Assembly: GCA_963737655.1 (NCBI GenBank)
Contig: CAVTTN010000002.1
Span: forward strand, 7,104,001-7,168,000
DNA length: 64,000 nt
Origin: an uncultured Planctomycetota bacterium
GTDB taxonomy: Bacteria > Planctomycetota > Planctomycetia > Isosphaerales > Isosphaeraceae
Reading direction: 5' to 3'
Shown: positions 10,650-56,644 of the stretch, in pieces
How the letters are laid out: each line of letters opens with the position of its first letter
Position numbering within the stretch: position 1 is the first letter of the stretch
The notes under the pieces: generated by a model
Seen by the model: only the letters and a program-made list of their open reading frames with translations
Database searches by the model: none
Told to the model about the DNA's origin: nothing
Position numbers and translations under genes: made by a program

Positions 10650-11297
10650 GGGTGGCCGGGAGATTCGCGGCATTTCGCCAGCCGGAACGGTTGTCATTCG
10701 GTCGTCGTGGACGCCGCGTCCACAATGCGCTTTGACGTCCCCCGGCCCGCGGTCGGCCTCAGGCCCGCCGGCCGAGCAGGTCGGCCAGGGACATCCGGGC
10801 CTCCGCGTCCGTCGAGTCGAGGAACGTCCCCTCGAGCCCCCGCCCCAGGAGGGCCCGGTAGGGATGGGTGGAAGCCGCTTCCACCCCGCCGAGTCCCCGG
10901 CCTCGGTTGAGTCGTGGGAGGCCCGGCCATCGATCTCCGGGCTTCCCCCGCGTTCGACGCTCGACCGGGACACCGCCCCGCCGACGATCGTCGCCTCGCG
11001 ACCGGCCCTCCCCGACCCTTCGCCATCGTCACCGGCCGGCACCGTACGCCGAGGCTCCCGACGTCGAGGCCGTCAGGGACTTCGCCGAGGAGGCCGCGCC
11101 GATCGCACGGGACCGCATGGCGGGGCGGACCGGCAGGCCGGCCCGACCGGCCCGATCGGACACATGCGTCCGCCGCCGTACCCCGCCCGGCGGCTCCCGG
11201 CGTACGGACCGCCCGGCCGGGCCGAGGCACCGGGGTCAGAGTCGCTGATTACGACGATGTCATGCCGGCCCTCGACCGGGGTGCAACGTTCGGTTTG
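10650..11297 (+). repeat. Element-end module, copy 1 (arm region + palindrome pair + ~400 bp)
   Basis: Aligns by eye with the reverse complement of 55385-56050 over ~600 bp, and with 23800-24110 over ~250 bp. Confidence 0.85.
10707..10884. repeat. Pair of 17-bp palindromes (10707-10723 C-type; 10868-10884 A-type)
   Basis: GTGGACGCCGCGTCCAC and GTGGAAGCCGCTTCCAC. Confidence 0.95.
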
Positions 11298-11329
11298 CCG
11301 GACCGACGCACCCAAGAGCCCGAAAGAGG

Positions 11330-11500
11330 TTCGCCCTGCTCTGTCGAAAATCCTGACTTGGGCAACGATCATCACATTATGTGAGATGACCCGCAGGATG
11401 ATCTCACGGCACTGGGTCCAATAGCTCCGCGCCTGCAGCGCCGAGCCCAACCGCCGCTTGATCATCGAATTGACGGTCTCCGTCTGCCACCGAATAAAAC
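11330..11500 (-). pseudogene. C-terminal fragment of an IS4/IS5-type DDE transposase
   Basis: RWQTETVNSMIKRRLGSALQARSYWTQCREIILRVISHN. Confidence 0.7.
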
Positions 11501-11769
11501 CGCTAGGACTGCCGGCTCTGTCATCCTCATGACGGCGTTTCGCCAACAAACCGGCTAAGATCGCCGTCCGCCGGGATGTACGGCGAAACGTCCGGGTCCT
11601 CTGTCCGCCGGGTTACTCTCAATAAGGATAGGAGTCGCTGGGCGGCAGGGATCGACCCGAGCGCGGGGTCCGCGATATTCGGGGAGGCGAGCGTCGAAAG
11701 CCGGTGAGCGGCCGCCGTCAAGAGCACCGCAATCCTCACATTTGACCCAGGCCGCGCCGATATCATTCA

Positions 11770-12674
11770 CATGAACTGTCCGTTCATTAACAGGCAGGGA
11801 CGCAAAGCGGATTGTTCGAATGTCGTTCATGCTCGGCTTGGACTGCTCGACCGGCTGCACTTCCGGTCGGCTCCGCCAGAGGACGGTCAACCAAGGTAGC
11901 ACCCTGCCGGAGTTGCAGTACCAACAGGTCCTGGACAACCTCGCCCAGTTCGCGTCGCGTCCCGGCTCCCTCCCCTGGCACGTCAATCTCAGGGAAGGGA
12001 CCACCCAGGTTACCGACTCGGTATCGGGAGGCGCGGCGCTGGACATCGGGCCGCCCGTCACATGGTTCCCGCAGCTCCTCGGTTCGAGGACAGCCGTGGC
12101 CCAGTGGGGGATGTCGCCGGTGATCGACGCGACTGAGCTGCGCCTGCTGCGGATCGCCTATCGGCGCGCCCACGGCGCCCCCGACATGCCGTCGCCCAAG
12201 TTCGTCGACGAATTGGCACACGAGCTGAAGGACCAGTTCGCATCCAACGCCGACCTGCGAAACGAGTCGGAGTTGTTTTATGAGTACCAGGGCCGCTCCA
12301 ACCGTAGCGCCCGTGAGTTGGATGCCCACGTGCTCACGACGAATGACGCCAGCGTATGCGGTAACCCCGGCGCGTCGGTCGATCGCTCCCCACTGGCGGC
12401 GAATGTCTGCCGGAAGATCGAGATGATCCAAGAGGACCTGGCCGAGATCCAGCCCGGCTGGTTCCATGTGGGAACCAAGCACGACATTCCGAAGGACGCC
12501 TGCTACGTCGGGAGAAGTGGGGATTGTTATACCTGGGTCTGCCCCGATGGGATCGACCAGCTCACCGAATTCACCCTGACCGTCCTGAAGATATCCTCCC
12601 TGATCAAAGAAACCGAGACGCTCATCAGCCCAGGGTCCGTGAAATTCTCGCCGGGAGACCGAGGGGGCGGATAG
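11770..12674 (+). CDS. Hypothetical planctomycete protein, possibly a lipoprotein; start uncertain
   Basis: Long ORF with coding-like codon usage; TGC-containing leader; QYQQVLDNLAQF motif. Confidence 0.6.
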
Positions 12675-12771
12675 GCAATCAGCTCGGCTTGGCAAGCCCA
12701 GCTTGATGGCCACATCCCCGGCCGACGAACGATTCGCGGCGGCGATCCTTTGCCATTCGAATTTCATCGAC

Positions 12772-22404: not shown

Positions 22405-23137
22405 TGCCGGCTTTCTCCACGTAGGCGATCAGTGATCGCGCCGCGTCGAGCAGCAGCTTGCGTCGGCCTTGCAGCGTGTCGGCCGGGATCGCTTCGAGCA
22501 GATCGATGGCCTGCCGCTGGGCCTCAGACGGCGTGGAATTCTTGCTGAAGGCGGGGGCCTTGGGCTTTGTGGGCGCCAATTCAGTACCGGGAGGGGCGGG
22601 GTCCATGAAAGGTCCATTGGTGGTCGGGAGCAGGGAACTTGAAGCGGAATCAGTTCTCATCAGCTTGACGCAGCGCGTCGGTGTGGTCGACCGGATGGGG
22701 CCGGCTGGCCATGCCAGTGACCCCGGGACCGCTCCCACCAGGCGCGGTCGCACCGGCGGGCAAGGCCGTCAGTGCCGGGCCGGGCACGTCGGGTCCGACG
22801 GGGCCTGGGGGCCCCAGCCCCTTTGGCCCATCGACCGGGAGGGACCTCCCCCGGCGGGTCCTGCGCCCGTCTCCCGCTCCGGGCGGCGGACGCGACTGGC
22901 GCACCCACTGGGCCGGCCTGGCCCAGGGGTCCACCTCGCCGCTGGGCGGACCGATCGCCCCGGGCGGGGGCTGTCGCGGCGAGGCCGGCCGGGGCCGCCG
23001 GACATCCTGACCGAGCCCACCGTTCATGGCCCACCGCCGCGAGGCCCGGCCGGGGGCCGTTCCGGCGGGCCGGAGTCCGATCACCCCGCCCGGCGATCGG
23101 GCCGTCCCCGGGTCGTCGCGCAGGGACCCTCGTGAGA

Positions 23138-23304
23138 GTGGACGCGGCGTCCACGGCCGGACATCTCCCTTCCGGCCGACCGCTCCCGGTCGAAGATCGG
23201 GAACCGTCTCCCCGTCTGGTGCCGTCGAGGCTCGCCGCCGGGGATCGGGGCTGGGAGCGGCCTCGAGCCTCGGCTCCCCTGGTGGCGGTGGAAGCCGCGT
23301 CCAC
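23138..23304. repeat. Pair of 17-bp palindromes (23138-23154 C-type; 23288-23304 A/C hybrid)
   Basis: GTGGACGCGGCGTCCAC and GTGGAAGCCGCGTCCAC. Confidence 0.92.
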
Positions 23305-23799: not shown

Positions 23800-24110
23800 T
23801 GAGTTCGTTAGCCCACGCCTGCCGGCGAGAAAAAACTCTGGGAATTTCCCTCCGGCCGATCCGGTAGTCGTGGACGCGGCGTCCACGACGCGTCCTGACG
23901 TCCTCCGTATCCGACGCTCGGTCGGCCTCAGGCACTCCGGCCCAGAAGGTCGGACAGGGACCTCCGGGCTCGGCGTCCGTCGGGTGGAGGGACGTCCCTT
24001 TGAACCCCGCCTCAGGAGGACTCGGTCGGGATGGGTGGACGCCGCGTCCACCCCGCCGCGTCCCGGGCCTCGGTCGGGTCGTAGGAGGCCCGGCCCATCG
24101 ATCCCCGTGC
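23800..24110 (+). repeat. Element-end module, copy 2, with palindromes at 23870-23886 and 24035-24051
   Basis: Homologous to 10650-10935 (ggtcggcctcagg, gcgtccgtcg, gggatgggtgga, ggaggcccggcc). Confidence 0.85.
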
Positions 24111-28419: not shown

Positions 28420-28523
28420 GACGAATTCTTGCAAGCCCTCGCCTACCGGCGTAAGAAGACGCGGGAAATCGCGGTGTTCCGGAGCGATCGCCGGTAAGAG
28501 TCGGTACTGGAAGCGGCTTCCAT
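28420..28523 (+). repeat. Element-end module, copy 3 (arm region + one A-type palindrome at 28507-28523)
   Basis: gcaagc..cctaccgg..aatcgcggt..ccggta matches the reverse complement of 55965-56045; TGGAAGCGGCTTCCA. Confidence 0.7.
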
Positions 28524-40445: not shown

Positions 40446-40469
40446 CGGGTCGCGTCGGCGGCGCTCGGA

Positions 40470-42512: not shown

Positions 42513-43158
42513 GTGGAAGCCGCTTCCACCCGCGACGCGCCCGGCGACCTCAGACCCCGAGCCGGTCGAGCTCGCGGTCTGAGGTCGCCGCCAGGGCCCT
42601 CGCGCGGCCGGCGGCCGAGTGTCGGGGCGGGGCGGCCTCGCCGGCCTCCGCCGCCTTGACGTCCTCGAAGAACCGGTACAGGCCGGCCAACGTCACGCAC
42701 CGGGTCCCGCCGACATGAACGTAATCCAGCTTACCGCCGCAAGATCCGTTCATTCATCGATAGATCGTGGCGACGTGGGGCGGCCGGCCGCCGCGGCGGC
42801 GGGGCAAGTACCGGCACGCCTGCGCCGGCGTCATCAGGTCGTGCGGCCCCGGCACGGGGCGGTCGGCTCGGGGGAGGTCGGCGGGCTCGTCGATGCTCAT
42901 CGTGCGAGTACCTCATCGGGTCGGGGTCGCGAGCGGGGTCCGATCGCCCCGATCCCCGGCCACGGCCCCCATCTTCGGGCCTCTCGCCGGGGCCGGGCAG
43001 AGGACGCGATCGGCCACGGACCCATGCGACGAGCCAGGCGGGCCCGGCCCCGCGGCCGTCCGGTGGGGCGTCCCCCGCGGGTCTGGACCCTGCGCTTCCC
43101 GCCGCCTCGGTCCCCGGCGGAACGCGCCTTCGAACCCTGGCGGGGACGCGGCGTCCAC
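42513..43158. repeat. 17-bp palindromes at 42513-42529 and 43142-43158 flanking a DUF1580 gene
   Basis: GTGGAAGCCGCTTCCAC and GGGGACGCGGCGTCCAC. Confidence 0.88.
42550..42900 (-). pseudogene. Second DUF1580-like gene with an in-frame TGA
   Basis: LMTPAQACRYLPRRRGGRPHVATIYR*MNG...VGGTRCVTLAGLYRFF; TGA at 42754-42756 where Trp is expected. Confidence 0.75.
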
Positions 43159-43230
43159 GCTCCGCGGCGAGGGGGGAACCTTCGGGGGCCGATGCAATCC
43201 GGGGCGATCCCTGCCCGCTCCGCGGGGGCC

Positions 43231-44448
43231 TCAGCGAGCCACCGCGCGACGCATCGGCTGGCGGCGTCCGTAGGTCAGCGACCTCCACGCCCATTCCGCC
43301 GGCCCGAACCGATACCTCCTCAGCCACGCGGAGCTGAAGGCCAGTTGGCCCGCGTAGAGGGCCAGCCCCACGAGTGCCGCGGGGGCCGATCCGAGGTGGC
43401 CGGACCACCCCAGCCCGTATCCGTAGAAGATCAGGCCCAGGGCCAGCGACTGGGCCAGGTAGTTCGTCAGGGCCATCCGGCCCACCGCCGCCACCGCCGA
43501 GACCAGGGGCCGTCCCCTCGATCCGCGCCCGGCCAGGAGCAGGATCGAGGCGTAAGCCAGGGCCAGTGGAAGGGAGGAAGCGGCGTCCAGCAGCCGACCG
43601 GGCACCGGGGACGGACTCCCCGTGGAGGCCGAGGCGACATGCAACGCCGTCGCCGACCCTCCCACGACACCCCCCGCGATGGCGACCACCCAGAGCAGGC
43701 CCCGATGGCCCGGCGGGTCGCGGACAACCCCGGCCCTCCAGGAGGCCAGGCCCAGCAGCATCACGCCGAGGGTCCTGGGCAGGACGCCCAGCAGCAGCGG
43801 GATGATCAACTGCCGAGTCTCGGCCCGGTGGAATGCGAGGACCTCCGCATAGCTGCCCCGAGCGTACACGCCCCTCGCCTCGGCGGCCATCGACCTCAGG
43901 GCGTCCTCGTCGGGGATCGCGGGGCCGAGATCGACCACCCACGGGAGGGCCGCGGCGACGACGCCGGCGACCACCTGGGCCGCCACCGGCAGCCGCAGCA
44001 CCGGCAGCAGCAGGAGGCCGCAGGCCGCATAGAGCGTGAGGATGTCGCCGTTCCAGACCAGCAGCATGTGGGCCAGGCCGATCCCCAGGAGGACCGCGAG
44101 CCGCCTCGCCAGGAGGAGGCGGGCGCCGGCCCCCCGGGCCGCGGCCCTCTTGTCGAAGCCGCCCAGGCCGGCGCCGAACAGGAGGGAGAAGAGGGTGATG
44201 GCCTTGAATTCCAGGAACGCGGCGACGAGCACGTCGACGAGGCGGTCGAGGTGTCCGGTCGCGGTGTGGAAGCGGAGGAGGTGCTCGGCCAGGGGGATCC
44301 GGAAGTCGCTCAGGAGGTTCACCAGGAGGACGCCGAGCAGCGCGACGCCGCGGAGGACGTCCAGGGCCTCGATCCGGTCCGCCCCCTCGACGGGCCGCAA
44401 GGGGCCGTCCCCCTCGCCGGCCCCGGCCGCCCCACGATCCTCCGTCAT
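43231..44448 (-). CDS. DUF418 / YeiB-family membrane protein
   Basis: RIEALDVLRGVALLG, FSLLFG, GDILTLYA, GRMALTNYL, GPAEW. Confidence 0.92.
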   Translation of the reverse strand: MTEDRGAAGAGEGDGPLRPVEGADRIEALDVLRGVALLGVLLVNLLSDFRIPLAEHLLRFHTATGHLDRLVDVLVAAFLEFKAITLFSLLFGAGLGGFDKRAAARGAGARLLLARRLAVLLGIGLAHMLLVWNGDILTLYAACGLLLLPVLRLPVAAQVVAGVVAAALPWVVDLGPAIPDEDALRSMAAEARGVYARGSYAEVLAFHRAETRQLIIPLLLGVLPRTLGVMLLGLASWRAGVVRDPPGHRGLLWVVAIAGGVVGGSATALHVASASTGSPSPVPGRLLDAASSLPLALAYASILLLAGRGSRGRPLVSAVAAVGRMALTNYLAQSLALGLIFYGYGLGWSGHLGSAPAALVGLALYAGQLAFSSAWLRRYRFGPAEWAWRSLTYGRRQPMRRAVAR

Positions 44449-44566
44449 TCGCAGACCTCCGCTCTGCGGGACCGGCACGCCCTCACGGGCCGTCGCCCCG
44501 TTATACTGGCCGGGGAGACCGGGGCCCAACGTCCGGCGCCCGGGACGGCCGGATTCGAGCACGGCC

Positions 44567-45514
44567 ATGAGAGGCCGTCGGGCCTCCCGGAGGAGGACCC
44601 GCTTGCCGACGCGACGCGACAGCCCCGACACCGGACGGGTCGCCGTGGCCTGGGCCGTGATGTTCGGCGGCCTCGTCGGCTTCTGGGGCCTGCGATCCCG
44701 GCTGGACGACCGGGCCTTCGGTTATGGGCAGGTCGCCGTCCTGCTCACGACCTGGAAGGTCGCCTCCCTCGTCCTGCTCCCGCCCCGGTCGTGGCGGAGG
44801 TTCACGCCCCTGCGCTTCCTCGCCTACCTGGTCTGGCCCGGGATGCAGCCCCGGCAATTCCTGGTCGGGGCGAGCGTCCCTCCCGGCGCCCCGATCCCGA
44901 CCCTCCGCGACTTCCTCCTCAACGTCCTGGTCGGGGCAGCCCTGTTCCTGCTGGCGAGATGGGGACTGCCGGCCGGGACGCCCCGCGCGGTCCGCTTCTG
45001 GGTCGCCCTGATCGGCTTCGTGACGCTGTTCCTCGTCGCGCGGCTGGACCTCTGGGCCCTGGTCTTCCGGAGGATGGGCTTCGCGGTCGAGAAGCTCTGG
45101 GACGGCCCGATCGCCGCCACCGGCCTGGGGGACTTCTGGGGCCGGCGATGGAATCGGATCGTCTCGGGGTTCCTCCGCGAGGCGGCCTTCGTCCCGCTGT
45201 CCCGCCGCGCCGGGCCGCGGGTGGCGTTGCTGGGCGTATTCCTCTACAGCGGCCTGTACCACGAGATGGCCAGCGTCCAGGCCCGCTCGGGCTACGGCGG
45301 GCCGATGCTCTACTTCCTGGTGCAATACCTCGGGGTCGCGGCCGAGGCCAGTCGCCCCGGGCGTCTCCTCCTGCGAGGCCGGCCGTGGCTGGGGCGGGCC
45401 TGGACGCTGGCCGTGGTCGTCGCGCCGCTGGGCCTGCTGCTGCGTCCGGGGTTCGTCGACGGCTACCTGGTGCCCCTCCTGGAGAGGGCGGGCGTGCCGG
45501 GGCTCCGCGGATAG
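44567..45514 (+). CDS. MBOAT_2 (wax-synthase-like) O-acyltransferase
   Basis: DFWGRRWN and FLYSGLYHE motifs; multiple TM segments. Confidence 0.85.
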   Translation: MRGRRASRRRTRLPTRRDSPDTGRVAVAWAVMFGGLVGFWGLRSRLDDRAFGYGQVAVLLTTWKVASLVLLPPRSWRRFTPLRFLAYLVWPGMQPRQFLVGASVPPGAPIPTLRDFLLNVLVGAALFLLARWGLPAGTPRAVRFWVALIGFVTLFLVARLDLWALVFRRMGFAVEKLWDGPIAATGLGDFWGRRWNRIVSGFLREAAFVPLSRRAGPRVALLGVFLYSGLYHEMASVQARSGYGGPMLYFLVQYLGVAAEASRPGRLLLRGRPWLGRAWTLAVVVAPLGLLLRPGFVDGYLVPLLERAGVPGLRG

Positions 45515-45889
45515 GCGGCGACCGATCCCATCGGAACCCCGGAACGCCCGGCGGCCGGACGCCGCGCCCACCCGCGACCCGGCGTGCTCGTCGCGGGCCA
45601 CAGACCGGCCCCGGCTGCGGTGAGGGCGGCGAGGCAGCGGCCCCATCGACGCCGGGGCCCAGGCCGCTTGACCTCGGGCTCGACGCGGGAAGGGGACCAG
45701 CCCTCGCGGAGCCGTGCCTCCGGGTCCCTCATCACCGGGGCCACCTCGGGTGCCGCGCGGGATCGCCCGAACGGCGCGACCCCGCGGCACCGCTCCCGGG
45801 CCTCTCCCTCGTGCCGGTCGGACGGCAGCGGCTCGGCCAGGTACACCTCGTCGGACCTCGGCCGGTCCGCCACAACCGCTGGCCCGGGG

Positions 45890-46018
45890 GTGGAAGCGGC
45901 TTCCACCCCGGGGGAGTGGGAACAGGACCGGGAAGGGCATCCGGCCTGGCCCGCTCCGGGTCATTCGGACATGCAAGTGGGGCGAAAAACGCCCGATGTC
46001 GGTGGGCGCCGCGTCCAC
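45890..46018. repeat. Pair of 17-bp palindromes (45890-45906; 46002-46018)
   Basis: GTGGAAGCGGCTTCCAC and GTGGGCGCCGCGTCCAC. Confidence 0.9.
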
Positions 46019-46850
46019 GGCCCCTTCGACCGGGCCTCCCTGCCCGACCCTCGCCGCACGGCCCGCAGAGGCCCCGGACCGTCGGCCCCGCACCCGCCGC
46101 ACGACCGTCGCCCAGGCTGGGCAGCCCCTGGGACCGCGGTCACGTCGGCCCGTCGGCGTGGTGCCCGACGCCCACGGCCTCCCGACCGTCGCGGGCCTAA
46201 GGGGCCGCGACCTCGGGACAGGCCGGATCGTGCCGGCGAGACGGGGGCGACTCCCCCCCGGGGGTGCAGACCTCGCACCCGAACGGCAGCCTCACGACCG
46301 GCCCGCCCTTCAGCCTGGACCGCGACTGTCGATGCATCGTGACCTGGCGGCAAACGCGGCAATATCTCCTGGCCAGCATCGCTCCCTCCGATTTTTGATC
46401 ATCTTCGCCTCGGCGTCGTCCAGGCACGCTCCCGCCCCTCATCGCGGCCCGAAGGACGTCGGGACGGCGACGAGGGAGGCGGTCGCTCGCGTCTCCTGGC
46501 GGATCGGAGTCGAGACTACCGGCACCCGGCCTGCCCCGGGAGTGGAGCGGCCCCGGTCCCTCGCACGAATCGCGAAGGGCGGGGCCGCCCCGGCACCGGC
46601 GCCCGAGGGCGCCCGCGAGAACGCCGCGTCGGGCACGCCGCGTCGCCCCGGCGATCGGGGCCCCGGGTATCGAGGGGGACGGCACATCATACATGAAAAA
46701 TGCACACATCATGAATATAACAGGGTGAGTCGTGCGACGAGCCGTCGACGACCCGAGGAACTCGGGGAGGAGCCTCCGGGCCGGGGGATGCCGGCCGGCG
46801 TCGTGGTCGCGCCCCGGCCGCTCGGGCCGTGCCCCGGGGGGACAACGGGC

Positions 46851-46867
46851 GTGGACGCCGCGTCCAC
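46851..46867. repeat. 17-bp palindrome upstream of the prim-pol gene
   Basis: GTGGACGCCGCGTCCAC. Confidence 0.92.
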
Positions 46868-47053
46868 GGCGACGAGGTCGGCCGGACCGCAAAGGGGTCG
46901 GCGGGGGCTGCCCCGCCACTGTTCGCGAAGGGCGGAATCGCCTGAAAATAACGAGGCCCCGGAGTGGCGATCCCGGGGCCTCGCATCGAGATCCTCGGTC
47001 GTCGCTGGCCTGGCGACCTAGGAGTGCTGACTACGCTACATGAGAGCGTCGCC

Positions 47054-48715
47054 GTGCGTGAATATCTTATCGGAATCACGACCGGGATCCCAGAGACGGT
47101 TGCCCCGCGGCACCGGGACCTGCCCGTTGCGCCGCCGCTCCTGGAGAGCATGAGACAGGTCACGCGGCATGGCCTCCGCATCTTCCCGGTCACCCACACC
47201 ACGAAGAGGCCGATGGGGGCGGGCTGGCAAGCTGCCGCCACGTCGTCCCCGGAGGTCCTGGTGGGCTGGATGCAAGCCAACCGCCCGGGCCGGCGCTGCC
47301 GCTCCTACCTGGTCCGCACGGGCGTCCCGATGCCCGACGGCCGCTACTTGATCGGTTTCGACGTCGACCCCCGGTCGGGAGGCCGCGAGAGCCTGGGGCG
47401 ACTCCTGGCCCTCCACGGCCTGACCCCGGACGACCTGCCCCCGACCCTCACGGTCCGCACCGGCGGCCATCCCGAAGGCAGGCACTATTATTACGGGTCT
47501 AGGGTCCCGTGGAAGGGCGTCAGCCCCATCCCCGGCTTCCCGGGCCTCGACCTGAAGGCCGACAGGGGCTACCTCATCGGCCCCGGTTCGCTCCATGATT
47601 CCGGCCGGACCTACGAGTTGATCCGGGGCTTCGACGAGGGGGTCGCGGACCTGCCCGAATGGCTGACGAGCACGCTGGAGGGGGCGGGCGAAAAGCACGA
47701 GGAGTCGGCACGGCGCGACCCGGGCCGCCGTGCCGGTCAAGCCGCCGGCACGCCCCAGGATGCCCGCTGGACGCCGGGCGTCCGCCCCGAGGCCATCCGG
47801 GGTGATGACGTCCCCGACGCCCCTGCGAGCGGGCCGCAGTCCCCCAGGGAGGCCGCACCGAGGGCGACCCCGGCCCGGGCCGCCTGCACCCGCCGGGCCG
47901 ACCCGGCGGCCCTGGCCGAGGAGATCGACCGCCGCTACCCGATCGAGGCCATCCACACCCGGCACAACGTCGAGCTCCGGGCCATCGCGTCCCTGCTCGG
48001 CCGCGGGTAATGCCCCGAGGACACGCTCGCGGCGGTGGCGATCCGAGAGACCCGGGCCGGGCCCTGGGCCTCCTCGGATCGTCGCCCGCCGCGGCCGAGG
48101 CCGACGCCCTGCGGATCGCCGAGGACTGCCTGAACGATCCGCACTTCGTCGTCGGCAGGCCCGGGGGCCGGTCCGCCGTCCCGAGCAAGACGAAGGGGGA
48201 CCACCGGGACGGTGCCGCAGGGGTCGCCATCCCCGCCTCCGTTTGCATGATCATTCGATCATCAATCATGGGGGCCGCGGCGCCCGAGGGGGGGAACGAA
48301 TCATCAAATAGACCCGGGTTAAAACCGGTTCACCACCGCTACCGGCTCGACAAGCGTCTTGCTGATCGTCCAGTCCCTGGTCCAGCACCTTGTTTACCTG
48401 CGGAGGGAAGGGCTGTGGTCGCGCGGGCGGACGTTCGCGACCACCGACGCGGAGCTCGTCACGCTGGCCACGCGGCTCGACCCGTCCGTGGCCTGGGATG
48501 AGGGCGGCTCCGACTTGCTCGCCGTGAAGCAGGACCTGATCGATCGCTTCGACTCGGGCCCGGCCCGCCGGCACGCCTTCGCCCGCGAGGTCGTGCGGGG
48601 CGACCGCCGGGCCGGCGAGGCGGTGGGCCGGCCGTCGGAGTACGAGCCGACCGGCCTGCTGGATCTCCTCGCCGCCTACGACACCGAGGTCGCCGCGGAG
48701 GCCCGCCGGGTATGA
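47054..48715 (+). pseudogene. Bifunctional primase-polymerase (Prim-Pol) protein, interrupted by TAA at 48008 and later shifts
   Basis: GLRIFPV, KRP, GFDVD, TVRTGG..GRHYYY, GLDLK..GYLIGPGSLH..Y, LPEWL; downstream coding-like segment to 48715. Confidence 0.8.
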
Positions 48716-48737
48716 GCAGGGCGGCAGTCCGGCCGGG

Positions 48738-49045
48738 GTGGAAGCCGCTTCCACCCCGGACCCCGCCGGGTCACTCGCCCCGGGCTTTCCGCTCGGCCTC
48801 GCGGCGGTGGAACTCGACGAGGAGCCGGCCGGCCTCGGCGTCCTCCTCGGGGGTGAAGTCGAGCTCCTCGGCGAGGACCCGGCCGTCGGCGTCCCGGAAC
48901 CGGCCGTCGGGTCCCTCGGCGTAGCGGCCTTCGAAGCGTTCGCGGCGGTCGTCCCGTCGCTGCGGATCGTGCACGGCCCACCCCCGGATTATCGGCGGAG
49001 GTCGCATCCCCGGATTCATTATCGAGTGGAAGCGGCGACCTCCAC
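48738..49045. repeat. 17-bp palindrome at 48738-48754 and degenerate copy at 49026-49045
   Basis: GTGGAAGCCGCTTCCAC and GTGGAAGCGGCGACCTCCAC. Confidence 0.8.
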
Positions 49046-49612
49046 GAGCCTCCGGCGGCGCGATCGTTTCGATGTCCGCGCCGCCCCTCGGGGACGCCGG
49101 ATCGTGGAGTGGGACGGCCTAGCGGCGACCTGTAACGATCCCGAGGGCCGGAAGCGGGACTACGCCATCAGCTTCGGGCTCGGGGCCTTCAACGACGAGG
49201 TCGACGCGATCCTGGCCCGCGTCAAGCCGGCCAATCCGGGGGAGCTCGTCCAGGAGGTCCGGGACGTCTTCACGCGGGCCGATCACGACGGCGAGGTCTT
49301 CAAGGACGCCCGGACGAGAGCGCCCATGCGAAGGGACATCGACGGGCCTCGGGGCTGAATTGACGGGCGCTCGCCCGAGCACACGGATGCGCCCGGGACT
49401 TTCGATCCGCCCGGGGTTTGCGGGCCCATTCGGGGTCTTGGTAGACTCGTCGCGCCCGGCCGCTAGGCCCCGGCCGCGGCGGCCACAGGCGAGGCGACGG
49501 TGCCCGGTCCTGGTCCGAGTGCGGGCGGCTCCTCGGTCGAGGCGGCCGAGAAATCGCCCGCCTCGGCGTGAGTTTCCCGCGCCTTCGCCGTCTTCTTCGA
49601 ATAGGAAGGGAC

Positions 49613-50173
49613 ATGGACCGCGACGACGGCATCGGGCCCCGGCCGATCGAGGCGTTCCGCGAGTACCTCCGGCTCCTGGCCCGGTTGCAGATCGGCCCGG
49701 ACCGCCGCTCGGCCGTCGATCCCTCCGACGTCGTCCAGCAGACGCTCCTGCGGGCCCATGAGAGGCGAAACCAGTTCCGGGGGACGACCGATGCCGAGCG
49801 CGAAGCCTGGCTCCGCGCGATCCTCGCCAGCCAGATCGCCGACGCCCTGCGCCGTCCCGAGCGTCGGGGAGGAGGCCGGCTCGTCTCTCTGGAGGCGGCT
49901 CTGCACGAGTCGTCGGCGCGGCTGGACGCCTGGCTCGCCTCCGAGCAATCCAGCCCGAGCGTGCGGGCCATGAGGGCCGAGCGGCTGGTCGAGCTTGCCG
50001 ACGCGCTCGCGACGCTGCCGGAGGATCAGAGGGAGGCCGTCGAGCTGAGGCACCTGAAGGGGCTCTCGGTGCCCGCGGTGGCCGAGGCGATGGGCCGCAC
50101 GACGGTCTCGGTGACGGGCCTTCTCTATCGGGGGAGCAAGGCGTTGCGGGAGAAGCTCGGCGGCGAACGGTGA
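49613..50173 (+). CDS. ECF sigma-70 factor, planctomycete kinase-associated type
   Basis: FREYLRLLARLQ, DPSDVVQQT, AWLRAIL, LPEDQREAVELRHL. Confidence 0.92.
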   Translation: MDRDDGIGPRPIEAFREYLRLLARLQIGPDRRSAVDPSDVVQQTLLRAHERRNQFRGTTDAEREAWLRAILASQIADALRRPERRGGGRLVSLEAALHESSARLDAWLASEQSSPSVRAMRAERLVELADALATLPEDQREAVELRHLKGLSVPAVAEAMGRTTVSVTGLLYRGSKALREKLGGER

Positions 50174-50191
50174 ACCGAGGCAGGGTGGGAC

Positions 50192-53100
50192 ATGGCCGAT
50201 CGGATTGACGTCTAGGCGAGGGGCGACCGCGAGGAGCGGCTGATCGCGATCATCGCGCAGTACTACGAGGCCGTCGAGTCCGGCGCGGCGCCGGATCGCC
50301 GAGCCGTGCTCGACGCCCATCCAGACCTCGCCGCCGAGATCGACGAGTTCCTCGTCGAGCAGGACCGCCTGCACCTCCTGGCCGAACCCTTGAGGCCCCT
50401 CGCGGAGTCGGCGGGGCTCACCGAGCCGGACGACGCGACCGCGCCCCTCGGCCCCTCGGGGTCGGCCGACCCCGGCCCGGACACCCTGGACGGGGACGGC
50501 GCGACTCCCCATCGGCCCGGGGGGCGCGTCCCCTACTTCGGCGATTACGAGCTGCGCCGCGAGGTCGGCCGGGGCGGCATGGGCGTCGTCTACGAGGCCC
50601 GCCAGGTCAGCCTCAATCGGGTCGTCGCGCTCAAGATGCTCCTGGCCGGTGCCCTCGCGGGCGAGGACGACCGCCGACGCTTCCGCGCCGAGGCCGAGGC
50701 CGTCGCGGCGCTCGACCACCCGAACATCGTGCCGATCTACGAGGTCGGCTCCCACCGGGGCGATTCCTATTTCAGCATGAAGGCGATCGACGGCGGCACG
50801 CTCGCCTCTCGCCTCGACGAGTTCGCGGGCCATCCGCGAGAGGCCGCCCGGGTGGTGGCGACCGTCGCGAGGGCCGTCCACCACGCCCATCAGCGCGGCG
50901 TCTTGCACCGCGATCTGAAGCCCTCGAACGTCCTCCTCGACGAGAATGGCGAGCCGCACGTCACCGACTTCGGCCTGGCGCGTCGCGTCGATGGGGGCGG
51001 CGACCTGACGCAGACCGGCGCGATCCTCGGGACGCCGAGCTACATGGCCCCCGAGCAGGCCACCGGGCGGCGGGGAGCCATCACCACGGCGACCGACGTC
51101 CACGGACTGGGGGCGATCCTCTACGCCCTGCTGGCCGGGAAGCCCCCCTTCGGCGGCGACTCGGTCCTGGAGACGCTCGACGAGGTCCGAGGGCAGCCCC
51201 CGAAGCCGCTCGGCCCGGGGATCGACCGCGACCTGGGGACGATCTGCCGGAAGTGCCTGGAGAAAGAGCCGGCGGCGCGGTGTGCCTCGGCCCTCGACGT
51301 GGCCGAAGACCTGGAGCGCTGGCTCCGGGGCGAGCCGATCGCCGCCCGTCCCGCCGGCCGGGCGGAGCGGCTCTGGCGCTGGTGCCGCCGGCATCGGGTC
51401 GCCCTGATCACGACGCTCCTGATCGCGTCGTCGCTGGTCACAGGCACGGTGATGAGCGTCCGGCAGGCGCGCCGCGCCCGACGCGCCGAAGCCGCCGCGG
51501 TCGGCCAGCGCGACCGGGCGCGGAAGTCGGTCGATGACATGTACACGCAGGTGGCGGAGAAATGGCTCTCGCAGGATCCCGATCTGGACCCCCTCCAGAG
51601 GGAATTCCTCCTCAAGGCCCTGGCGTATTACGAGGAGTTCTCCCGCGAGGGGGCGCCGAGCGCCTCGGAGCTGGAGGAAAAGGCCTCCGCCGAGCAGCGC
51701 GTCGGGGACATCCAGAGGAAGCTGGGGGCGCTGGACGAGGCGGAGCGGGCCTATCGCTCGGCCGTCGCGATCCAGGGAGAACTCCGGGACCGATCCCCCA
51801 GGTCGCCCTTCGACCGGACTCGCCTCGCGGGAGGGCTGACCGGCCTCGGCGAGCTGCTGCGAGCCGAGGGACGGACGGATGAGGCGGAGCGCGTCATGCG
51901 CAACGCCCTGGAGCTGAACGAGGCGGTCGCGGCCGAGTTCCCCGACGTCCCTCGATATCGGACCTATCTGGCCAGGAGCTACACCCGACTCGCCCTCCTC
52001 TTCCGCGAGACGGGCCGGTGGAAAGCGGCCGAGGAGGCGGACACGCGGAGTATCGCGCTGCTCGAGGCGCTCGCCGCCGAGGGGCCCGAGGATGCCGAGG
52101 ACCGCGGCGCCCTCGCCTCCAGCTACGCGAACCTCGGCGTCCTCCTCTCCCAGACGGGGCGCGCCACGGAGGCCGAACAGGTCTGGGGTCGGGTCGTCCG
52201 TCTTTATGAGGCCCTCCTGCCCGAATCGCCGAAGGACGGCGCGGTGCGGTCGGGCCTGGCGCTGGGGAACAACAACCTCGGCGTGCTGCTGTACGGAGAG
52301 GGGCGGCTCGAGGAGGCGGCCGAGGCCCTGGGTCGGGCCGCCGAGCTGCAAGAGGGGCTCGCGGCCGACTCCCCCGGGGCGCCGCAGTATCTCAAGGGCG
52401 TCGCCGATTCCCGCTCGAACCTCGCCCTGGTGCTCCTCGCCCTGAAACGCCCGGAGGAGGCGGAGGAGGCCTTCCGCCGCGCCATCAAGCACTATGAAGC
52501 GCTCGCGACCCGATGGCCCGACGTCCGCGACCATCGGAGCGGCCTCGGGGCCGCACTGAACAACCTGGCGGTCCTCCTCCAAGAGCGGGGCGAGGCGCGG
52601 GAGTCCGCGGATCTGTACCGTCTCGCCATCGAGCAACAGGGCGCCGCGTCGCGGGCCAACCCGCGGAACCCGACGTACCTCGCATTCTTGAGGAACCATT
52701 TCGACGGCCTGTCCCAGTCCCTCCTTCAGCTCGGCGATCACGCGGGAGCGGCGGAGGCGAGCGAGGAACTGGCACGGATCTCGCCCCGGGGGCTGCCGGA
52801 CCTCCTGCTCGCCGCGACCCGCATCGCGCAATGTCGCCGCCGAGCGGAGTCGGACCCGGGGCTTTCGCCGAGCCGGAGGCGCGACGCCGCCCGGGCCCAC
52901 CTGGAGCGATCCCGGGAGCTGTGCGAGAAGGCGGCCCTCGCCGCGAAGGACGACCCCGACGCCCTGAACAACGTCTCCTGGTTCCTGGCGACCTGCCCGG
53001 AGCCCGATCTCCGCGACCCGGCCCGCGCGGTCGAGCTTGCCCGAAAGGCCGTGGAGCGGGCTCCGCAAAACGGCGAGTGCTGGAACACGAAGGGAGCGGC

Positions 53101-53389
53101 CGAGTACCGCGCCGGGCATTGGGACGAAGCGATCTCGGCCCTCTCGCGGTCGATGGAGCTCTCCTCGGGCGGATCGCCGGCCGACTGGATCTTCCTCGCC
53201 ATGACGCATCGGCGGAAGGGGAACGACGGCGAGGCGCGGTCGTGGTTCGCGAAGGCGAGTGCCTGGATGGATCGGAATCGATCGACCGATGAGGATCTGA
53301 TCCGCCTGCGCGACGAGGCCGCGGCCCTCCTGGGCCCGTCGGACGGGGATCGCGCGATGCCCGCCGGCCCGGACGCCTTCGCCCGATGA
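50192..53389 (+). CDS. Ser/Thr kinase + TM + TPR array; in-frame TAG at codon 8 (50213-50215)
   Basis: RBS-ATG at 50192 is in frame with ORF 50306-53389; VGRGGMG, HRDLKPSN, DFGLA, GTPSYMAPE. Confidence 0.88.
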
Positions 53390-53594
53390 TGGGTGTGACG
53401 TCCGGGGCCGCCGCGAGTGATCCGGGAGCGTCCGGGGACCGGCCTCGAAGAATTCTCGCGTGAGTTTTTCGAGCCTCCGGCGTCTTGAAACCTGTCGCGG
53501 CGGGCGGAACGGGCGCGGCGTCGGCGAAGACGCCGTGATGAGGCCCGTTCGCCACAGCCGCGCCCCGATGCCCCATCCCCCGGAGACCCCGACG

Positions 53595-55276
53595 ATGTTC
53601 CGCCGCCTCCTCCATCCGTCCGCGTTCCGCCGCGCCCTGCCCGCCCGAGTCGCCTCGCACGCCCCCCCCGGACGGACCCGGGCGCGGCCGCGGCTCGAGG
53701 GGCTCGAAGGGCGGTGCCTGCTCTCGGGGATCTCGGGCACGGCGCAGTATCCCATCCCGATCGGCAGCTCCGTTTACATCACGGGAGGGCCCGGCGGCAA
53801 CCTCTGGTTCACCGATCAGCAGACCAACGGCACCTGCTATGTTGGCACCATCAATTCCGCGACCCGCGCCATCAGCGAGTATCCCATCCCCACGACCAAT
53901 TGCTATCCGAGGGAGATCACGACCGGCCCAGATGGAAACATCTACTTCACCGAATTCGGGGCCAACAAACTCGGGAGGATCAACCCGACGACCCACGCCA
54001 TCACGGAATTCAGCATCCCGGCCGACTCCCAACCCTGGGGCATCGTTACCGGCCCGGACGGGAACCTCTGGTTTGCCGAGAGGGGTGGGAACTCCACGAC
54101 GGGCAGCGCGATCGATTCCTTCAATCCGACGACGCACGTTTTCAGCTCGTATGCCACGTACCTCGGCAACGGGAACTATCTCGGCGTCGGGCCGACAGGG
54201 CTCACGACCGGCATCGACGGCAACCTCTGGTTCACGACCTACGACGGCGCCGTCGGCAGCATCAACCCGACGACGCACGTGATCCAGGAATATCCCATCC
54301 CGACCAGCGGGGCCACATCCTATGACATCGCCACGGGTCCCGATGGCAATCTCTGGTTCACCATGCCCTCTGCCAACCCGGGGTCCGAGGGACAGCAGGT
54401 CGTCTCATTCAATCCGAACACGCAGGCCTTCTATCCCATCGCCGTCCCCGGCGGGGGCGAACCTTACGGGATCACGACCGGCCCCGACGGCAACCTGTGG
54501 TTCGCCGAGGCCGGAACCGGCCAGGTCGGCCGGATCAACCCGACGACCGACGCCCTCACCCAGTTCCCGATTTCGGCCGGCCGGGGGATCACGACTGGCC
54601 CCGACGGCAACCTTTGGCTCGCCTCCGGCTCGACCATCACCGTCGCGACGCCGGGCCAGTCCGAAACCGACCTGGTGGTCACGCAGCAACCACCATCCAG
54701 CGTCACCGCGGGGGCCGGCTTCGGCTTGACGGTCGCCGCCGAAGACGGCTCGGGGGACGTCGTCACGTCGTTCAACGGCACGGTCACCCTGTCGCTCGGC
54801 AACAACCCCGGCGGCGACACTCTCGGAGGGACGACGGTCAACGCCGTCAACGGCGTGGCGACCTTCTCCGGGCTGTTGCTGACGAAGAGCGACCCGGGTT
54901 ATGCGCTCGTGGCCTCGGCGGGCCTCGACGGCGAGGGCGTCACCGGCGCGTTCGCCGTGACCCCGGCGGCGGCCTCGCAGGTCGTGGTTACGCAGCAGCC
55001 TCCTTCGAGCGTCTCGACGAACTCGGCGTTCACCGTCATCGCGGCGATCGAGGACCAGTACGGCAATATCGTGACCTCGGCCAACGGCGCCGTGACGATC
55101 GCCATCGGCACGAATCCGGGGGCTCCACGCTCGGAGGGACCACGACGGTCTCGGCCGTGGACGGTGTCGTGACGTTCTCGAACCTGACTCTGAACAAGAA
55201 GGGCAAGGGCTACACCCTGAAGCTCTCGTCGGCGGGGCTCCTCGGCACCACGACCTCGGCGTTCAAGGTCGGCTGA
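53595..55276 (+). CDS. Secreted Vgb-lyase-like beta-propeller with two Ig-like domains (frameshift near 55120)
   Basis: Leader RPRLEGLEGRCLLS; seven ITTGPDGNLWF-type blades; two VVTQQPPSSV...GVATFS domains. Confidence 0.85.
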
Positions 55277-55384
55277 GGCCTGGGCCGCCCGCCACACCGG
55301 TCTGCGACACCCCCGGGCGGAGGGGAGTCGTGGGTCGCGGCGGCCGGCCCTGCCAGCCGGCGGAGGGACGCGTCGGTCCGCCAT

Positions 55385-56050
55385 ACCGAACGTTGCAAAC
55401 AATCGAGGGCCGGTACGACTTTCTGGCGATCGGCGTGACCGACTCCGGGGCCTGGGCTCCGTCGGGCGCCCGTACGGCGGGGGCCGCCGGGCGGAGGTAC
55501 GGCAGCGGACGCATGCGTCCGATCGAACCGGCCCGCCGGTCCGTCCCGCCATGCGGTCCCGTGCGATCGGCGCGGCCTCCTCGGCGGAGTCCCTGACGGC
55601 CTCGACGTCGGGAGCCTCGGCGCACGGCCCCGGGCCGGGTGCCGGCCGGTAACGATGGCGAAGGGTCGGGGAGGGCCGGCCGCCAGGCGGCGATCGGCCG
55701 GCGGGGCCGAGGCCCGGGGGACCGATGGGCCAGGCCTCCCCCGCCCCGACCCGACCCGACCCGACCAGGGACGCGGCGGTGTAGACTCCGCGTCCACCGA
55801 TCCCTACCGGGTCCTCCTGATGAGGGGGATCAAGGGATGTTTCTGAGCTCGACGGACGCCGAGACCCGGATGTACCTGGCGGACCTGCTCGGCGGGAGGG
55901 CCTGAGATCGATCGCGGGCCAGATGACGAGGGACTGCCCTCCGCGATGTGGACTTCACCTCCACGACTACCGGAAGACTACCGGGTCGGACGGCGGGATA
56001 CCGCGATTCCTCGCGATTTTTCGCTCCGGTAGGAGGACGCTTGCGAATCC
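55385..56050 (-). repeat. Element-end module, copy 4 (inverted), with degenerate palindromes at 55781-55797 and 55948-55964
   Basis: Shares long blocks with 10650-11297 (e.g. cgccgaggctcccgacgtcgaggccgtcagggact, gatcgcacgggaccgcatggcggg, tgcaacgttcggt); gactaccgg twice at 55965-55985. Confidence 0.88.
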
Positions 56051-56484
56051 GGTCCGGTCTGGCAAGATGATTTTGGGCAACGGTTTACGAGGCTTTCCCC
56101 CGTCGCCCTCGGCCGCAAGTCACGCCGCGGTGGTCGTGGGTCACGGCGAGCGAGGGGCGACGGTCGGCGTGCGCGGGGCAGAGGCCCTCGTGCTGGGGCC
56201 GGCCGTCGCAGCCTACGGCCGCCCGCCGGAACCTCCGGTCACCGACCTCATGCGCCGATCGGAGCCGCTCGAACGCCTGGCGGCCCGCCGCCTCATCGCC
56301 ATGGGCGTGGGCTTCCTCGCCGCCGCCGGTCGCGAAGCGGGGCCGCCCCGAGCTTCGGGCCCGCGGCCACGGATGGCAAGCCGGGTGCGGGGCCCGGTCC
56401 TGCCGGGCGTCGATCGCCGGTGCCTCGGAGAAGCAGCGGCCCGAGGGCCTCCGCCCCGCGTCCCGGAGCAGCGCCGGGATCGGG

Positions 56485-56644
56485 GTGGAAGCGGCTTCCA
56501 CTCCGCGGCTGGTCGACGCCCCTGGGAACCCTTGGCGGAGGTGGTCGTGGGACTTCCGACCCGGGCGTGGGCGGGCCGAACCGCGTTCGAGATCAAGCAT
56601 GAGCACTCGACATTCGGCCGCGACGGGGTGGACGCCGCGTCCAC
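56485..56644. repeat. Pair of 17-bp palindromes just downstream of the integrase (56485-56501; 56628-56644)
   Basis: GTGGAAGCGGCTTCCAC and GTGGACGCCGCGTCCAC. Confidence 0.93.

Follow-up and report, generated by a model that had tools for sequence, protein, structure and literature searches.

A 17-bp palindrome, GTGGA(A/C)GC(C/G)GC(T/G)TCCAC, is dispersed through four tRNA-linked islands of an Isosphaeraceae genome and is probably (we would put it near 0.6) the recognition site of a partner-less ParB/Noc/KorB-type protein encoded in two of those islands. The reading draws on the fold of the protein, the position of the sites and the co-occurrence of protein and palindromes across the family. 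The site itself is real and restricted to the islands. In the window (the whole 64,000-nt stretch of DNA analysed), 18 matches with at most two mismatches were found against 0.18 expected, and shuffled sequences gave one at most (n = 100); 12 matches are exact, two have one mismatch and four have two. Across the 7.6-Mb genome, all 21 exact copies lie inside the four islands (12 of them in the window, a further 5 at 2.59-2.64 Mb, another 3 at 5.905-5.918 Mb and a single one at 1.94 Mb), which bears out the island restriction proposed in an earlier, sequence-only reading of this DNA. Allowing two mismatches brings the genome count to 39, 34 of them in the four island regions; each of the 5 copies outside carries two mismatches. 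The two arm variants rank 1 and 4 among the genome's perfect 8-N-8 palindromes. Seventeen of the 18 coordinates listed in the sequence-only reading were recovered at two mismatches or fewer. The remaining one, 55948..55964, is too decayed to match at this threshold, yet it lines up with the left palindrome of module A, a repeated unit of 270 bp.

The first copy of module A carries exact palindromes of the C/G class on the left (10707..10723) and of the A/T class on the right (10868..10884). In the second copy both are exact and of the C/G class (left, 23870..23886; right, 24035..24051, upstream of a kinase gene at 24296-25990), and an inverted copy has the decayed left site at 55948 and a right site with two mismatches (55781..55797). 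About a dozen sites are located 2-72 nt 3' of stop codons, a position also typical of attC sites and 3'-end hairpins. An exact C/G-class copy at 23138..23154 starts 2 nt past the stop of ORF 22458-23135, and only one exact copy, at 23288..23304, combines an A/T left half with a C/G right half. A site mismatched at its two outermost bases (28507..28523) lies 50 nt past the stop of a DUF499 gene (28574-30955, minus strand). Exact A/T-class sites are found 20 nt past the stop of a DUF1580 pseudogene (42513..42529) and, with GGG/CCC flanks, 22 nt past the stop of ORF 48359-48715 (48738..48754). An exact C/G-class copy (46851..46867) precedes the prim-pol ORF 46964-48010 by about 100 nt. The site at 46002..46018 has one mismatch; that at 49026..49042, with two, is doubtful and little more than a half-site. 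A two-mismatch match at 43574, within the DUF418 ORF (43231-44631), may be due to chance.

On the right, tRNA-His (57697-57770, minus strand) is adjoined by a tyrosine integrase (56694..57602, minus strand). An exact C/G-class site (56628..56644) lies 49 nt past the integrase stop; an exact A/T-class site (56485..56501) precedes a 61-aa primase remnant (56115..56297, minus strand), some 190 nt from its start. Both fall in the non-coding stretch between integrase stop and primase start (56298..56693, minus strand), which is 80-90% identical across three islands. On the left, the palindrome-bearing stretch is limited by a perfect 46-nt copy of the tRNA-Gly(ccc) 3' end (10444..10489, minus strand), the integration site of the 5.90-Mb island; a second tyrosine integrase (9127..10317, minus strand) has no palindrome on its side. 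Taken over all islands, the 34 sites follow stop codons, precede primase, prim-pol and DUF1580 genes, or stand behind integrases. The window's island is decayed, with its primase remnant, DUF1580 pseudogene and IS fragments.

The candidate binder is a 340-aa orphan protein with a ParB/Noc/KorB fold, encoded by two identical gene copies in sister islands (2612022-2613044 and 5914819-5915841). Both copies stand behind a DNA primase whose upstream region bears the palindrome. This 417-aa primase is the one to which the window's remnant is 84% identical; the perfect site 2615283 lies 189 nt upstream of it, and the ParB-like gene lies downstream of the primase, in the same orientation. The block formed by the site and the primase start occurs six times in the genome, once in the window (56485). 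The protein matches PHROG 1033, "ParB-like partition protein" (E 1.7e-16), and has 86 homologues, with PF02195 in most of those listed. In the family alignment, D83, G84, F85 and R87 of an ADGFHR motif are invariant, and a helix-turn-helix comes next. The AlphaFold model has pLDDT >85 for residues 30-175, and Foldseek matches it best to Noc, ParB and KorB, with E values between 1.7e-7 and 6e-6 across some 150 columns. No sequence-level match to a solved ParB or KorB was found; the protein falls in a distant ADGFHR subfamily. Next to the ParB-like gene no ParA was seen, either in this genome or in 10 relatives' loci, an absence that fits an orphan ParB of the regulator type as described in PMC12704722.

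Genes of this family carry a palindrome of the same format at a fixed spot. Among metagenome loci that cover the spot, 49 of 72 have a 16/17-bp palindrome (at most one arm mismatch), its sequence varying by locus, 414-516 nt past the equivalent of residue 31 and just behind the part coding for the helix-turn-helix. The GTG(G/T)...(C/A)CAC type was found in 13 of 80 loci (18 sites), while the reversed control gave 1 and 50 shuffles averaged 2.3 with a maximum of 6; 17 of the 18 sites fall at +421 to +546. Several family sites are 8+S+8 17-mers with GTGGAA, GTGGAG or GTGGTA half-sites, as in the window motif. Each lineage has a site sequence of its own: here the 17-mer, and in a same-genus genome a 16-bp analogue, present in 8 copies with zero copies of the 17-mer, that differs from the intragenic site of two metagenome relatives at the outermost base only. 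That same-genus genome (an assembly of about 820 contigs) yielded no island-type ParB-like gene, only a conserved chromosomal ParB-like paralogue without a palindrome. Among metagenome loci of at least 4 kb the same arm recurs in only two, so that wide dispersal is not typical of the family.

Six of the relatives' 10 long loci have a ResIII/DEAD helicase after the ParB-like gene and one has a DnaB-like helicase there; a Toprim primase follows the gene in two. Such a place ahead of helicase and primase would be as natural for an origin-binding initiator as for a regulator. The same binder might accordingly have another job, with the palindromes as origin-type sites, as in phage modules whose initiator gene contains the origin; other islands would then be replicated or amplified in trans, via their sites, by a sister island's primase/ParB-like module. 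The intragenic palindrome, the helicase and primase genes and the fact that no ParA was seen in these loci all favour such a role, as does the situation here, where the gene stands behind a primase and both primase and prim-pol genes have sites upstream. We nevertheless regard it as unlikely: 34 sites spanning >100 kb in four islands, many behind unrelated cargo genes, are not the layout of an origin, and ParB-fold initiators are not described in the cited literature.

The sites also coincide with the borders of gene modules, as the sequence-only reading had described. Of 150 unique ends of homology blocks between related islands, 21 lie within 25 nt of a site, compared with 2.6 +/- 1.8 in 2000 random placements; part of this enrichment is expected anyway because conserved palindromes anchor local alignments and occupy intergenic DNA. 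The exact A/T-class site at 45890..45906 marks the end of homology with the tRNA-Arg island. A 2.4-kb DUF418 and MBOAT segment (43159..45530), missing from an otherwise collinear stretch of that island, has site copies plus some 20 nt of common flank at its borders, and the corresponding place in the tRNA-Arg island holds just one site. The segment's right border is a one-mismatch palindrome (43142..43158) in the gap from the DUF418 stop (43231) to the DUF1580 start, and its other border a decayed copy (approximately 45554..45572) that aligns with site 2609584 of the tRNA-Arg island. The DUF1580 segment between palindromes is inverted relative to the tRNA-Arg island, a 14-kb defence block is bounded by two sites, and the mixed site at 23288 resembles a hybrid of the two classes.

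These observations would suit crossover sites of site-specific recombination, at which modules are inserted, deleted or inverted by a tyrosine integrase or by the ParB-like protein with its nuclease fold. Inverted arms of 5-8 bp around a 7-bp centre are the core geometry of tyrosine recombinases, and the palindrome can be read in this way. We nonetheless hold recombination to be improbable. Besides the share of the enrichment due to alignment anchoring and intergenic position, other junctions lie off the sites: a 1.2-kb indel is 155 nt from a site, neither end of a 4.3-kb unit 99.8% identical between two islands is at a site, and the 2.4-kb insert has its left junction some 30 nt past the palindrome. 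The island integrases have tRNA att sites of their own and score 19-25 bits on integron-integrase models, far below cut-offs of 265-435 bits, and in the metagenome relatives the palindrome goes with ParB-like, helicase and primase genes, without a recombinase. The clustering of junctions would rather be a side effect of short identical repeats.

The more specific proposal of an integron-like cassette array built by satellite-type elements is not supported. As with attC, a site can stand behind the stop of a module, and site copies border one insert; unlike attC, this is a short, perfect palindrome whose sequence is fixed, there is no IntI-type integrase, and the modules hold several genes each in both orientations. 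The module map itself agrees with the Pfam map, except that DUF1580 is not intact in the window: the copy there (42550..43083, minus strand) has in-frame stops and is 82% identical to the genome's single intact copy (2609869-2610300), which makes DUF1580 a weak candidate for the recombination actor once suggested.

Symmetry within the motif bears on whether the palindromes act as hairpins, either 3'-end, terminator-like RNA stem-loops or REP/MITE-like mobile hairpins. On this view the palindromes were brought in on foreign DNA or multiplied by a transposase. Bases 6 and 12 change together, with symmetry there in 20 of the 21 exact copies and class switches at four homologous positions; site 2637330 has an extra paired change at positions 5 and 13, and in the A/T class the stem is prolonged by GGG/CCC extensions. 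Such compensatory changes, and the dozen or so sites just past stop codons, favour a hairpin. Template switching at quasi-palindromes, however, could yield symmetric sites without hairpin function. No T run follows the sites within 40000-58000, the flanks outside the 17-mer have no common consensus, so that a larger mobile unit is not visible, and no Y1/RAYT-type transposase was found in the island ORFs scanned. One sequence throughout this genome and another in the same-genus genome would, moreover, need a sequence-specific partner or active homogenisation. The REP alternative shares with the palindrome a short, GC-rich, intergenic format and a GTGG start, but here GTGG lies inside the stem and the motif is island-confined rather than genome-wide. 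The 17-mer was not found in 40 relatives; one of 120 other genomes of the order holds a single copy, and no rich donor was seen among them. A hairpin function is improbable, and the REP alternative is rejected on the island-confined distribution and the lack of a rich donor among these genomes.

A ParB-type recognition site, the dispersed operator/parS alternative of the sequence-only reading, is best supported, by the ParB-fold protein and the family-wide palindromes. Chromosomal ParB-parS offers a 16-bp palindrome bound by a ParB dimer and, as a further likeness, parS within or adjoining parB. It differs in that parS has the TTCCAC/GTGGAA hexamers in reverse order (consensus in PMC12409273) and in that there is no ParA partner here and the sites are not near an origin. 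The KorB-OB system of RK2 is close in several respects. It also relies on a ParB-fold protein with a helix-turn-helix, KorB chains being among the best fold matches; its site is short and perfectly palindromic, leaves one central C/G free and has an AGCSGCT centre equal to that of the A/T class, judging from the OB oligonucleotide in PMC11790492; and a dozen or more sites are spread over a mobile element of about 60 kb, near and far from promoters, with twelve OB sites across the plasmid in the RK2 account in PMC13768133. In contrast, OB is 13 bp and the site here 17 bp with GTGGA...TCCAC arms, the protein belongs to its distant subfamily with no IncC or KorA partner seen, and the sites are carried by a set of chromosomal tRNA islands, of which one lacks the gene. 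BisD-bisS of ICEclc, as presented in PMC12409273, likewise pairs an orphan ParB-like protein of an integrated element with a parS-like inverted repeat that has one free central base and lies inside or beside genes, and it acts at a distance along the element, as is proposed for the palindromes here; but ICEclc has two sites against 34 over four islands, the site sequences are unrelated, and BisD has an activator domain and a partner, BisC. Cluster O mycobacteriophages, in the description in PMC4351075, carry >30 copies of an invariant 17-bp dyad-symmetric repeat, mostly intergenic and without meaningful orientation, in a mobile genome that also encodes a ParB-like domain protein, with binder and function unproven there. 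That repeat has 7-bp arms and three free central bases, belongs to a lytic-looking phage and is described with few if any copies at rearrangement points, whereas block ends cluster at the sites here.

Some observations count against a ParB-type recognition site. The island holding most sites, the window's with 18, has no ParB-like gene; dimer binding alone leaves the symmetry at positions 6 and 12 unexplained; and this genome's ParB-like gene shows nothing better than decayed sites in the region of the family's intragenic spot (2612380 and 2613252, three mismatches each), while no island-type gene was found in the same-genus genome. We infer that the 340-aa protein binds the 17-mer, and that binding would control or organise island genes rather than start replication. 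One dimer would dock on each dyad-symmetric 17-mer, and the docked sites would form an island-wide operator or loading network, as KorB-OB does on RK2 or BisD-bisS on ICEclc; with no ParB-like gene in the window's decayed island, its sites would be read in trans by protein from the sister islands.

The window was searched for the 17-bp palindrome GTGGAMGCSGCKTCCAC with up to two mismatches allowed. This returned 18 matches (12 exact, 2 with one mismatch and 4 with two), where 0.18 were expected and the maximum in 100 shuffles was 1. Seventeen of the 18 positions listed in a sequence-only reading of this DNA were recovered; the one missed, at 55948, is a decayed copy that still lines up with the left-hand palindrome of module A, a repeated unit. 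The additional two-mismatch match, at 43574, falls within the DUF418 ORF and could be a chance hit, and the site at 49026 is a half-site only. Exact copies in the 7.63-Mb assembly (68.7% GC) total 21: 12 in the window, 5 at 2.59-2.64 Mb, 3 at 5.905-5.918 Mb and 1 at 1.94 Mb. tRNA genes (Arg-CCG, Gly-CCC and Asp-GTC) adjoin the other three regions, and an integrase related to the window's is present in the Arg and Gly regions, referred to here as the sister islands. With up to two mismatches the assembly holds 39 copies, 34 of them inside the four island regions, and when the genome's perfect 8-N-8 palindromes are ranked by frequency, the motif's two arm variants come first and fourth. A whole-genome scan found no exact copy outside the four islands. 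Thus, the island restriction first proposed from the window alone holds for all 21 exact copies, and the ordinary genome-wide REP element offered at the time as an alternative is excluded.

Beyond this genome the motif is rare. None of 40 relatives, among them 3 of the same genus, has the exact sequence, and one copy was found among 120 other genomes of the order, in a single genome. A scan of one genome per species gave, among the matches listed, isolated single ones in unrelated taxa only. No motif-rich donor genome was therefore seen among those searched. Metagenome contigs gave no match to a two-site pattern, and no mention of the four 17-mers was found in the literature searched.

The palindrome-bearing stretch of the window is limited by 46 nt (10444-10489) that repeat the 3' end of tRNA-Gly(ccc) without a mismatch and by a tyrosine integrase gene (56694-57602) beside tRNA-His; a tRNA-His 3'-end direct repeat marking the island's far end was not found within the window. 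The cargo comprises a block with an ECF sigma factor, a kinase, cytochrome P460 and a porin; a kinase-TPR pair; a broken DUF499/DUF1156/DrmD-like defense block with IS66 pieces within it; a DUF1580 pseudogene; DUF418 and MBOAT-type genes; a prim-pol gene; and a block with an ECF sigma factor, a kinase and a propeller protein. The decayed anti-phage block (28574-39970) includes DUF499 and DUF1156 fragments, a DrmD-like SNF2 helicase with a NOV_C domain, a UPF0175/DUF3368 pair and the IS66 transposase pieces. The tRNA-Gly fragment stands between a second integrase (9127-10317) and DNA 81% identical to the far end of the tRNA-Gly island, an element of about 67 kb at 5.90 Mb whose far att copy lies at 5970393-5970473; this arm-core-integrase order resembles that of an intact attP, which the tRNA-His island would then carry within it. 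Elsewhere in the window, a direct repeat of about 460 bp (4-467 and 1861-2323, 96-100% identical) surrounds 1.9 kb with an outer-membrane efflux protein fragment, and an ORF at 59210-59533 consists almost wholly of Asp/Glu-rich repeats of 9-15 nt. DUF1580, whose sequence by eye has the look of an excisionase/AlpA-type helix-turn-helix protein, was considered as an actor on the sites and rejected: the window copy (42550-43083) is a pseudogene with in-frame stops, and the genome has a single intact gene (2609869-2610300). The name DUF1580 was not found in the literature searched.

The two arms are perfect complements, and every island copy has C or G as its central base. At positions 6 and 12 the exact copies carry C/G in 12 cases and A/T in 8, one copy (23288) being mixed; at 2637330, in the tRNA-Arg island, an additional paired change affects positions 5 and 13. 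Homologous sites differ in class at four positions; those behind the integrases, for example, are C/G in the window and A/T in the other two islands. Between homologous sites, most of them perfect palindromes, the identity of the arms (0.83) hardly exceeded that of the aligned flanks (0.79), in a comparison that scores class switches as mismatches and has one coordinate mis-set. GGG and CCC tend to flank A/T-class sites; other flanking sequence has nothing in common beyond larger paralogous repeats. One of these, module A (about 270 bp), has two sites 161-165 bp apart and is present in three copies in the window, one inverted, and three elsewhere. Another recurrent arrangement lies behind the integrase genes, where the stop codon is followed by about 50 nt, a site, 126 nt, a second site and about 190 nt before the primase start codon. 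This stretch is 80-90% identical in three islands, above the integrase genes themselves (67-77%). Small ORFs between the paired palindromes of both arrangements were rejected, having broken frames in some copies and substitutions without a codon pattern, and the intervening stretches are treated here as non-coding.

About 12 sites lie 2-72 nt past a stop codon, and further ones are found upstream of the primase, prim-pol and DUF1580 genes, as judged from gene calls by a crude codon-usage caller and Pfam in which small genes may be wrong. Intrinsic terminators were rejected: the 8 terminator-like matches in 40000-58000 include no palindrome, and no site in this interval is followed by a T run. 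An Rfam search of the window returned tRNA-His alone. That the sites are hairpin or REP-like elements is, overall, very improbable, for unlike the repeats of REP/RAYT systems they are not chromosome-wide; a Pfam scan of 127 island and flanking ORFs, which may have overlooked short ORFs or ones outside this set, found no Y1 (RAYT) transposase family. Other short sequences were noted on the way. CCGGTAGTC motifs stand next to module A and ahead of integrases, and the window shows no excess of them (26 versus 21 +/- 4.4). These short repeats, of CCGGTAG type, occur in inverted orientation directly upstream of integrase genes (57603-57640 and 10345-10370), as direct repeats at the left edge of module A (23861-23869 and 55965-55984) and also in two relatives' integrase loci (L130 and L134). 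A second perfect 17-bp palindrome, GGTGCATG-N-CATGCACC, lies at 9 places of the genome's contig C2 (e.g., 406229, 3553462 and 7469984), none of them in islands, and is probably the operator of some chromosomal regulon.

A candidate binder is encoded in the sister islands. These share a 4.3-kb unit (C2 2611126-2615462 and 5913923-5918260), 99.8% identical and with sharp ends lacking terminal repeats, which points to recent transfer or conversion between the islands. The unit carries one palindrome. It encodes a 417-aa DNA primase (phrog_6088, E 4e-19) with a weak CHC2 zinc finger and, after it, a 340-aa protein that matches PHROG 1033, "ParB-like partition protein" (E 1.7e-16), and whose helix-turn-helix spans residues 131-175. 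Both genes lie on the same strand, the primase gene first, with a perfect site 189 nt before it, and the block formed by a site and the primase start occurs six times in three islands. The ParB-like gene is present in two identical copies in the sister islands (2612022-2613044 and 5914819-5915841) and absent from the window, where a 61-aa primase remnant alone is left (56115-56297). A search gave 86 homologues of the 340-aa protein, and PF02195 is present in most of those listed. An alignment of 30 sequences shows conservation of an ADGFHR motif (D83, G84, F85 and R87 invariant) and of the helix-turn-helix; a candidate for the GxxR motif of a nucleotide (CTP) pocket would be G84-F85-H86-R87, residues that are invariant or nearly so. 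A comparison by sequence only weakly matched sulfiredoxin and nothing else. The structure model is confident over residues 30-175; compared with solved structures it best matches Noc, ParB and KorB, over the N-terminal and DNA-binding domains. On these results, the sister islands encode a protein with a ParB N-terminal fold followed by a helix-turn-helix.

The relatives of this protein provided a further view of its likely site. In 80 metagenome loci encoding them (L164-L243), when no more than one arm mismatch is allowed, palindromes of the form GTG(G/T)-N8/9-(C/A)CAC occur 18 times, in 13 loci; the reversed control gave 1, and 50 shuffles gave a mean of 2.3 and a largest value of 6. All but one of the 18 lie 421-546 nt past the start of the match. 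When 16- or 17-bp palindromes of any sequence were counted, 49 of the 72 loci covering the spot had one 414-516 nt past the equivalent of residue 31, at the end of the part coding for the helix-turn-helix. These intragenic palindromes vary in sequence from locus to locus, many reading (C/G)TG...CA(G/C), and several are 8+S+8 17-mers with half-sites GTGGAA, GTGGAG or GTGGTA, the format found in the window. A palindrome of constant place and symmetry whose letters change with the protein has the look of a cognate binding site. The ParB-like gene of the window's genome itself contains decayed palindrome copies only. Among loci of at least 4 kb, an exact 7-nt arm of the locus's own palindrome recurs in 2 only, so the spread to 34 sites is special to the islands described here.

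In 10 long loci the ParB-like gene is followed by a ResIII/DEAD helicase gene (6 loci) or a DnaB-like helicase gene (1 locus), and a Toprim primase is found in 2. Because helicases and primases are the neighbors and no ParA was seen, the ADGFHR ParB-like family belongs to replication modules of mobile DNA. A ParABS partition system was rejected, since, unlike in such systems, no ParA-type ATPase family was present among the neighbors scanned in the window's genome and in the 10 relatives' loci. The helicase and primase genes would also fit a protein that binds the palindrome but works as an origin-binding replication initiator instead of a regulator, a live alternative that we nevertheless regard as unlikely.

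A same-genus genome, G001, lacks the 17-mer and has instead a 16-bp analogue, GTGGCA(A/G)CG(T/C)TGCCAC, in 8 copies, 3 of which lie behind integrase genes. The analogue is absent from the other three genomes tested, the window's included, and differs from the intragenic site of two metagenome relatives in its outermost base alone. On contigs C504 and C301 of G001 (loci L145 and L146), two integrase genes each lie between two copies of this palindrome, 1042-1043 bp apart. Three same-genus genomes and one genome of the family were searched for a ParB-like gene of the island type, and only a conserved chromosomal paralogue, without a palindrome, was found; the lack of an island-type gene in the fragmented assembly that carries the 16-bp analogue leaves a gap in the argument for the binder.

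Several known systems resemble this one. On RK2 the ParB-fold clamp KorB has twelve OB sites within about 60 kb (PMC13768133), and the AGC(C/G)GCT core likeness to the KorB operator that had been pointed out from the window is borne out by an OB oligonucleotide (PMC11790492) whose central AGCSGCT is common to the A/T class. BisD of ICEclc is described as an orphan ParB-like regulator that loads at two intragenic inverted repeats with a free central base (PMC12409273), and orphan ParB-fold proteins are reported to be frequent on mobile elements (PMC12704722). Cluster O mycobacteriophages have 34 copies of an invariant 17-bp dyad repeat, its binder given as unknown, and also encode a protein with a ParB-like domain (PMC4351075). 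The same source describes the stoperators of Cluster A mycobacteriophages as asymmetric and oriented with transcription; the island sites, unlike these, are symmetric, and by our tally their central base has no fixed relation to the strand of the upstream gene, which rules out a stoperator identity.

Sites also mark the ends of rearranged segments. In the tRNA-Arg island the contiguous order is site, 335-nt block, site, DUF1580, site; in the window the 335-nt and DUF1580 blocks are inverted, with a 2.4-kb DUF418 and MBOAT segment between them that has a copy of the site and about 20 nt of common flank at either side. The 14-kb defense block has one site at each end. The coincidence of module breakpoints with sites, suspected from the outset, was confirmed in that 21 of 150 unique homology-block ends lie within 25 nt of a site, versus 2.6 +/- 1.8 in 2000 random placements, a figure inflated by the conserved 17-mer, which lies between genes and acts as an anchor for alignments. 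This inflation weakens the case for site-specific module exchange at the palindromes, as do three further points: the left junction of the 2.4-kb insert lies about 30 nt outside the palindrome, a 1.2-kb indel is 155 nt away from the nearest site, and neither end of the 4.3-kb unit shared by the sister islands falls at a site. We consider such exchange highly unlikely. The integron-like cassette array favored in the sequence-only reading did not find support either. Two of the four island integrases score 19-25 bits on integron-integrase models, with cut-offs of 265-435, the remaining two give no match at all, and an IntI-type enzyme was rejected. attC sites, which are imperfect, variable in sequence and length and placed behind single co-oriented genes, were rejected as well, the island sites being perfect 17-mers of fixed sequence. 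The modules comprise several genes each, on both strands, whereas integron cassettes are single-gene and co-oriented, and the one candidate for presence or absence of a cassette with flanking sites is the 2.4-kb segment. On present evidence, this is no new kind of cassette system.

The best explanation is the operator/parS-type alternative originally raised for the likeness to the KorB operator, in view of the ParB-fold gene in the sister islands and the palindrome within 49 of 72 relatives' genes. The palindrome would serve an orphan ParB/KorB-type protein encoded on the islands as its docking site. It would have been amplified across related tRNA-linked islands, and in the window's island it would be read in trans; we put the probability of this reading at about 0.6. 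An extension that we consider rather improbable is that, through the docking sites, one family of islands lives off another. An island that has lost the primase/ParB-like module, such as the window's, would keep the sites, and the sister-island module would replicate, silence or rearrange this island in trans; breaks or stalled forks at bound palindromes, or ParB nuclease-type nicking, would drive exchange, inversion and insertion at sites, amounting to a ParB-based cassette shuffling distinct from integrons.

If the docking-site reading is true, control of the KorB/BisD type by an orphan ParB reaches the chromosomal tRNA islands of a planctomycete, and docking sites can outlast the loss of the protein gene from an island, which hints at cross-talk or dependence between sister islands. 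For the widespread ADGFHR ParB-like subfamily, encoded next to mobile-DNA genes for helicases and primases, the probable site at a fixed intragenic place would serve as a handle that makes sites easy to predict and to test at the bench. That rearrangement ends cluster at the sites, finally, would bear on the origin of island mosaics.
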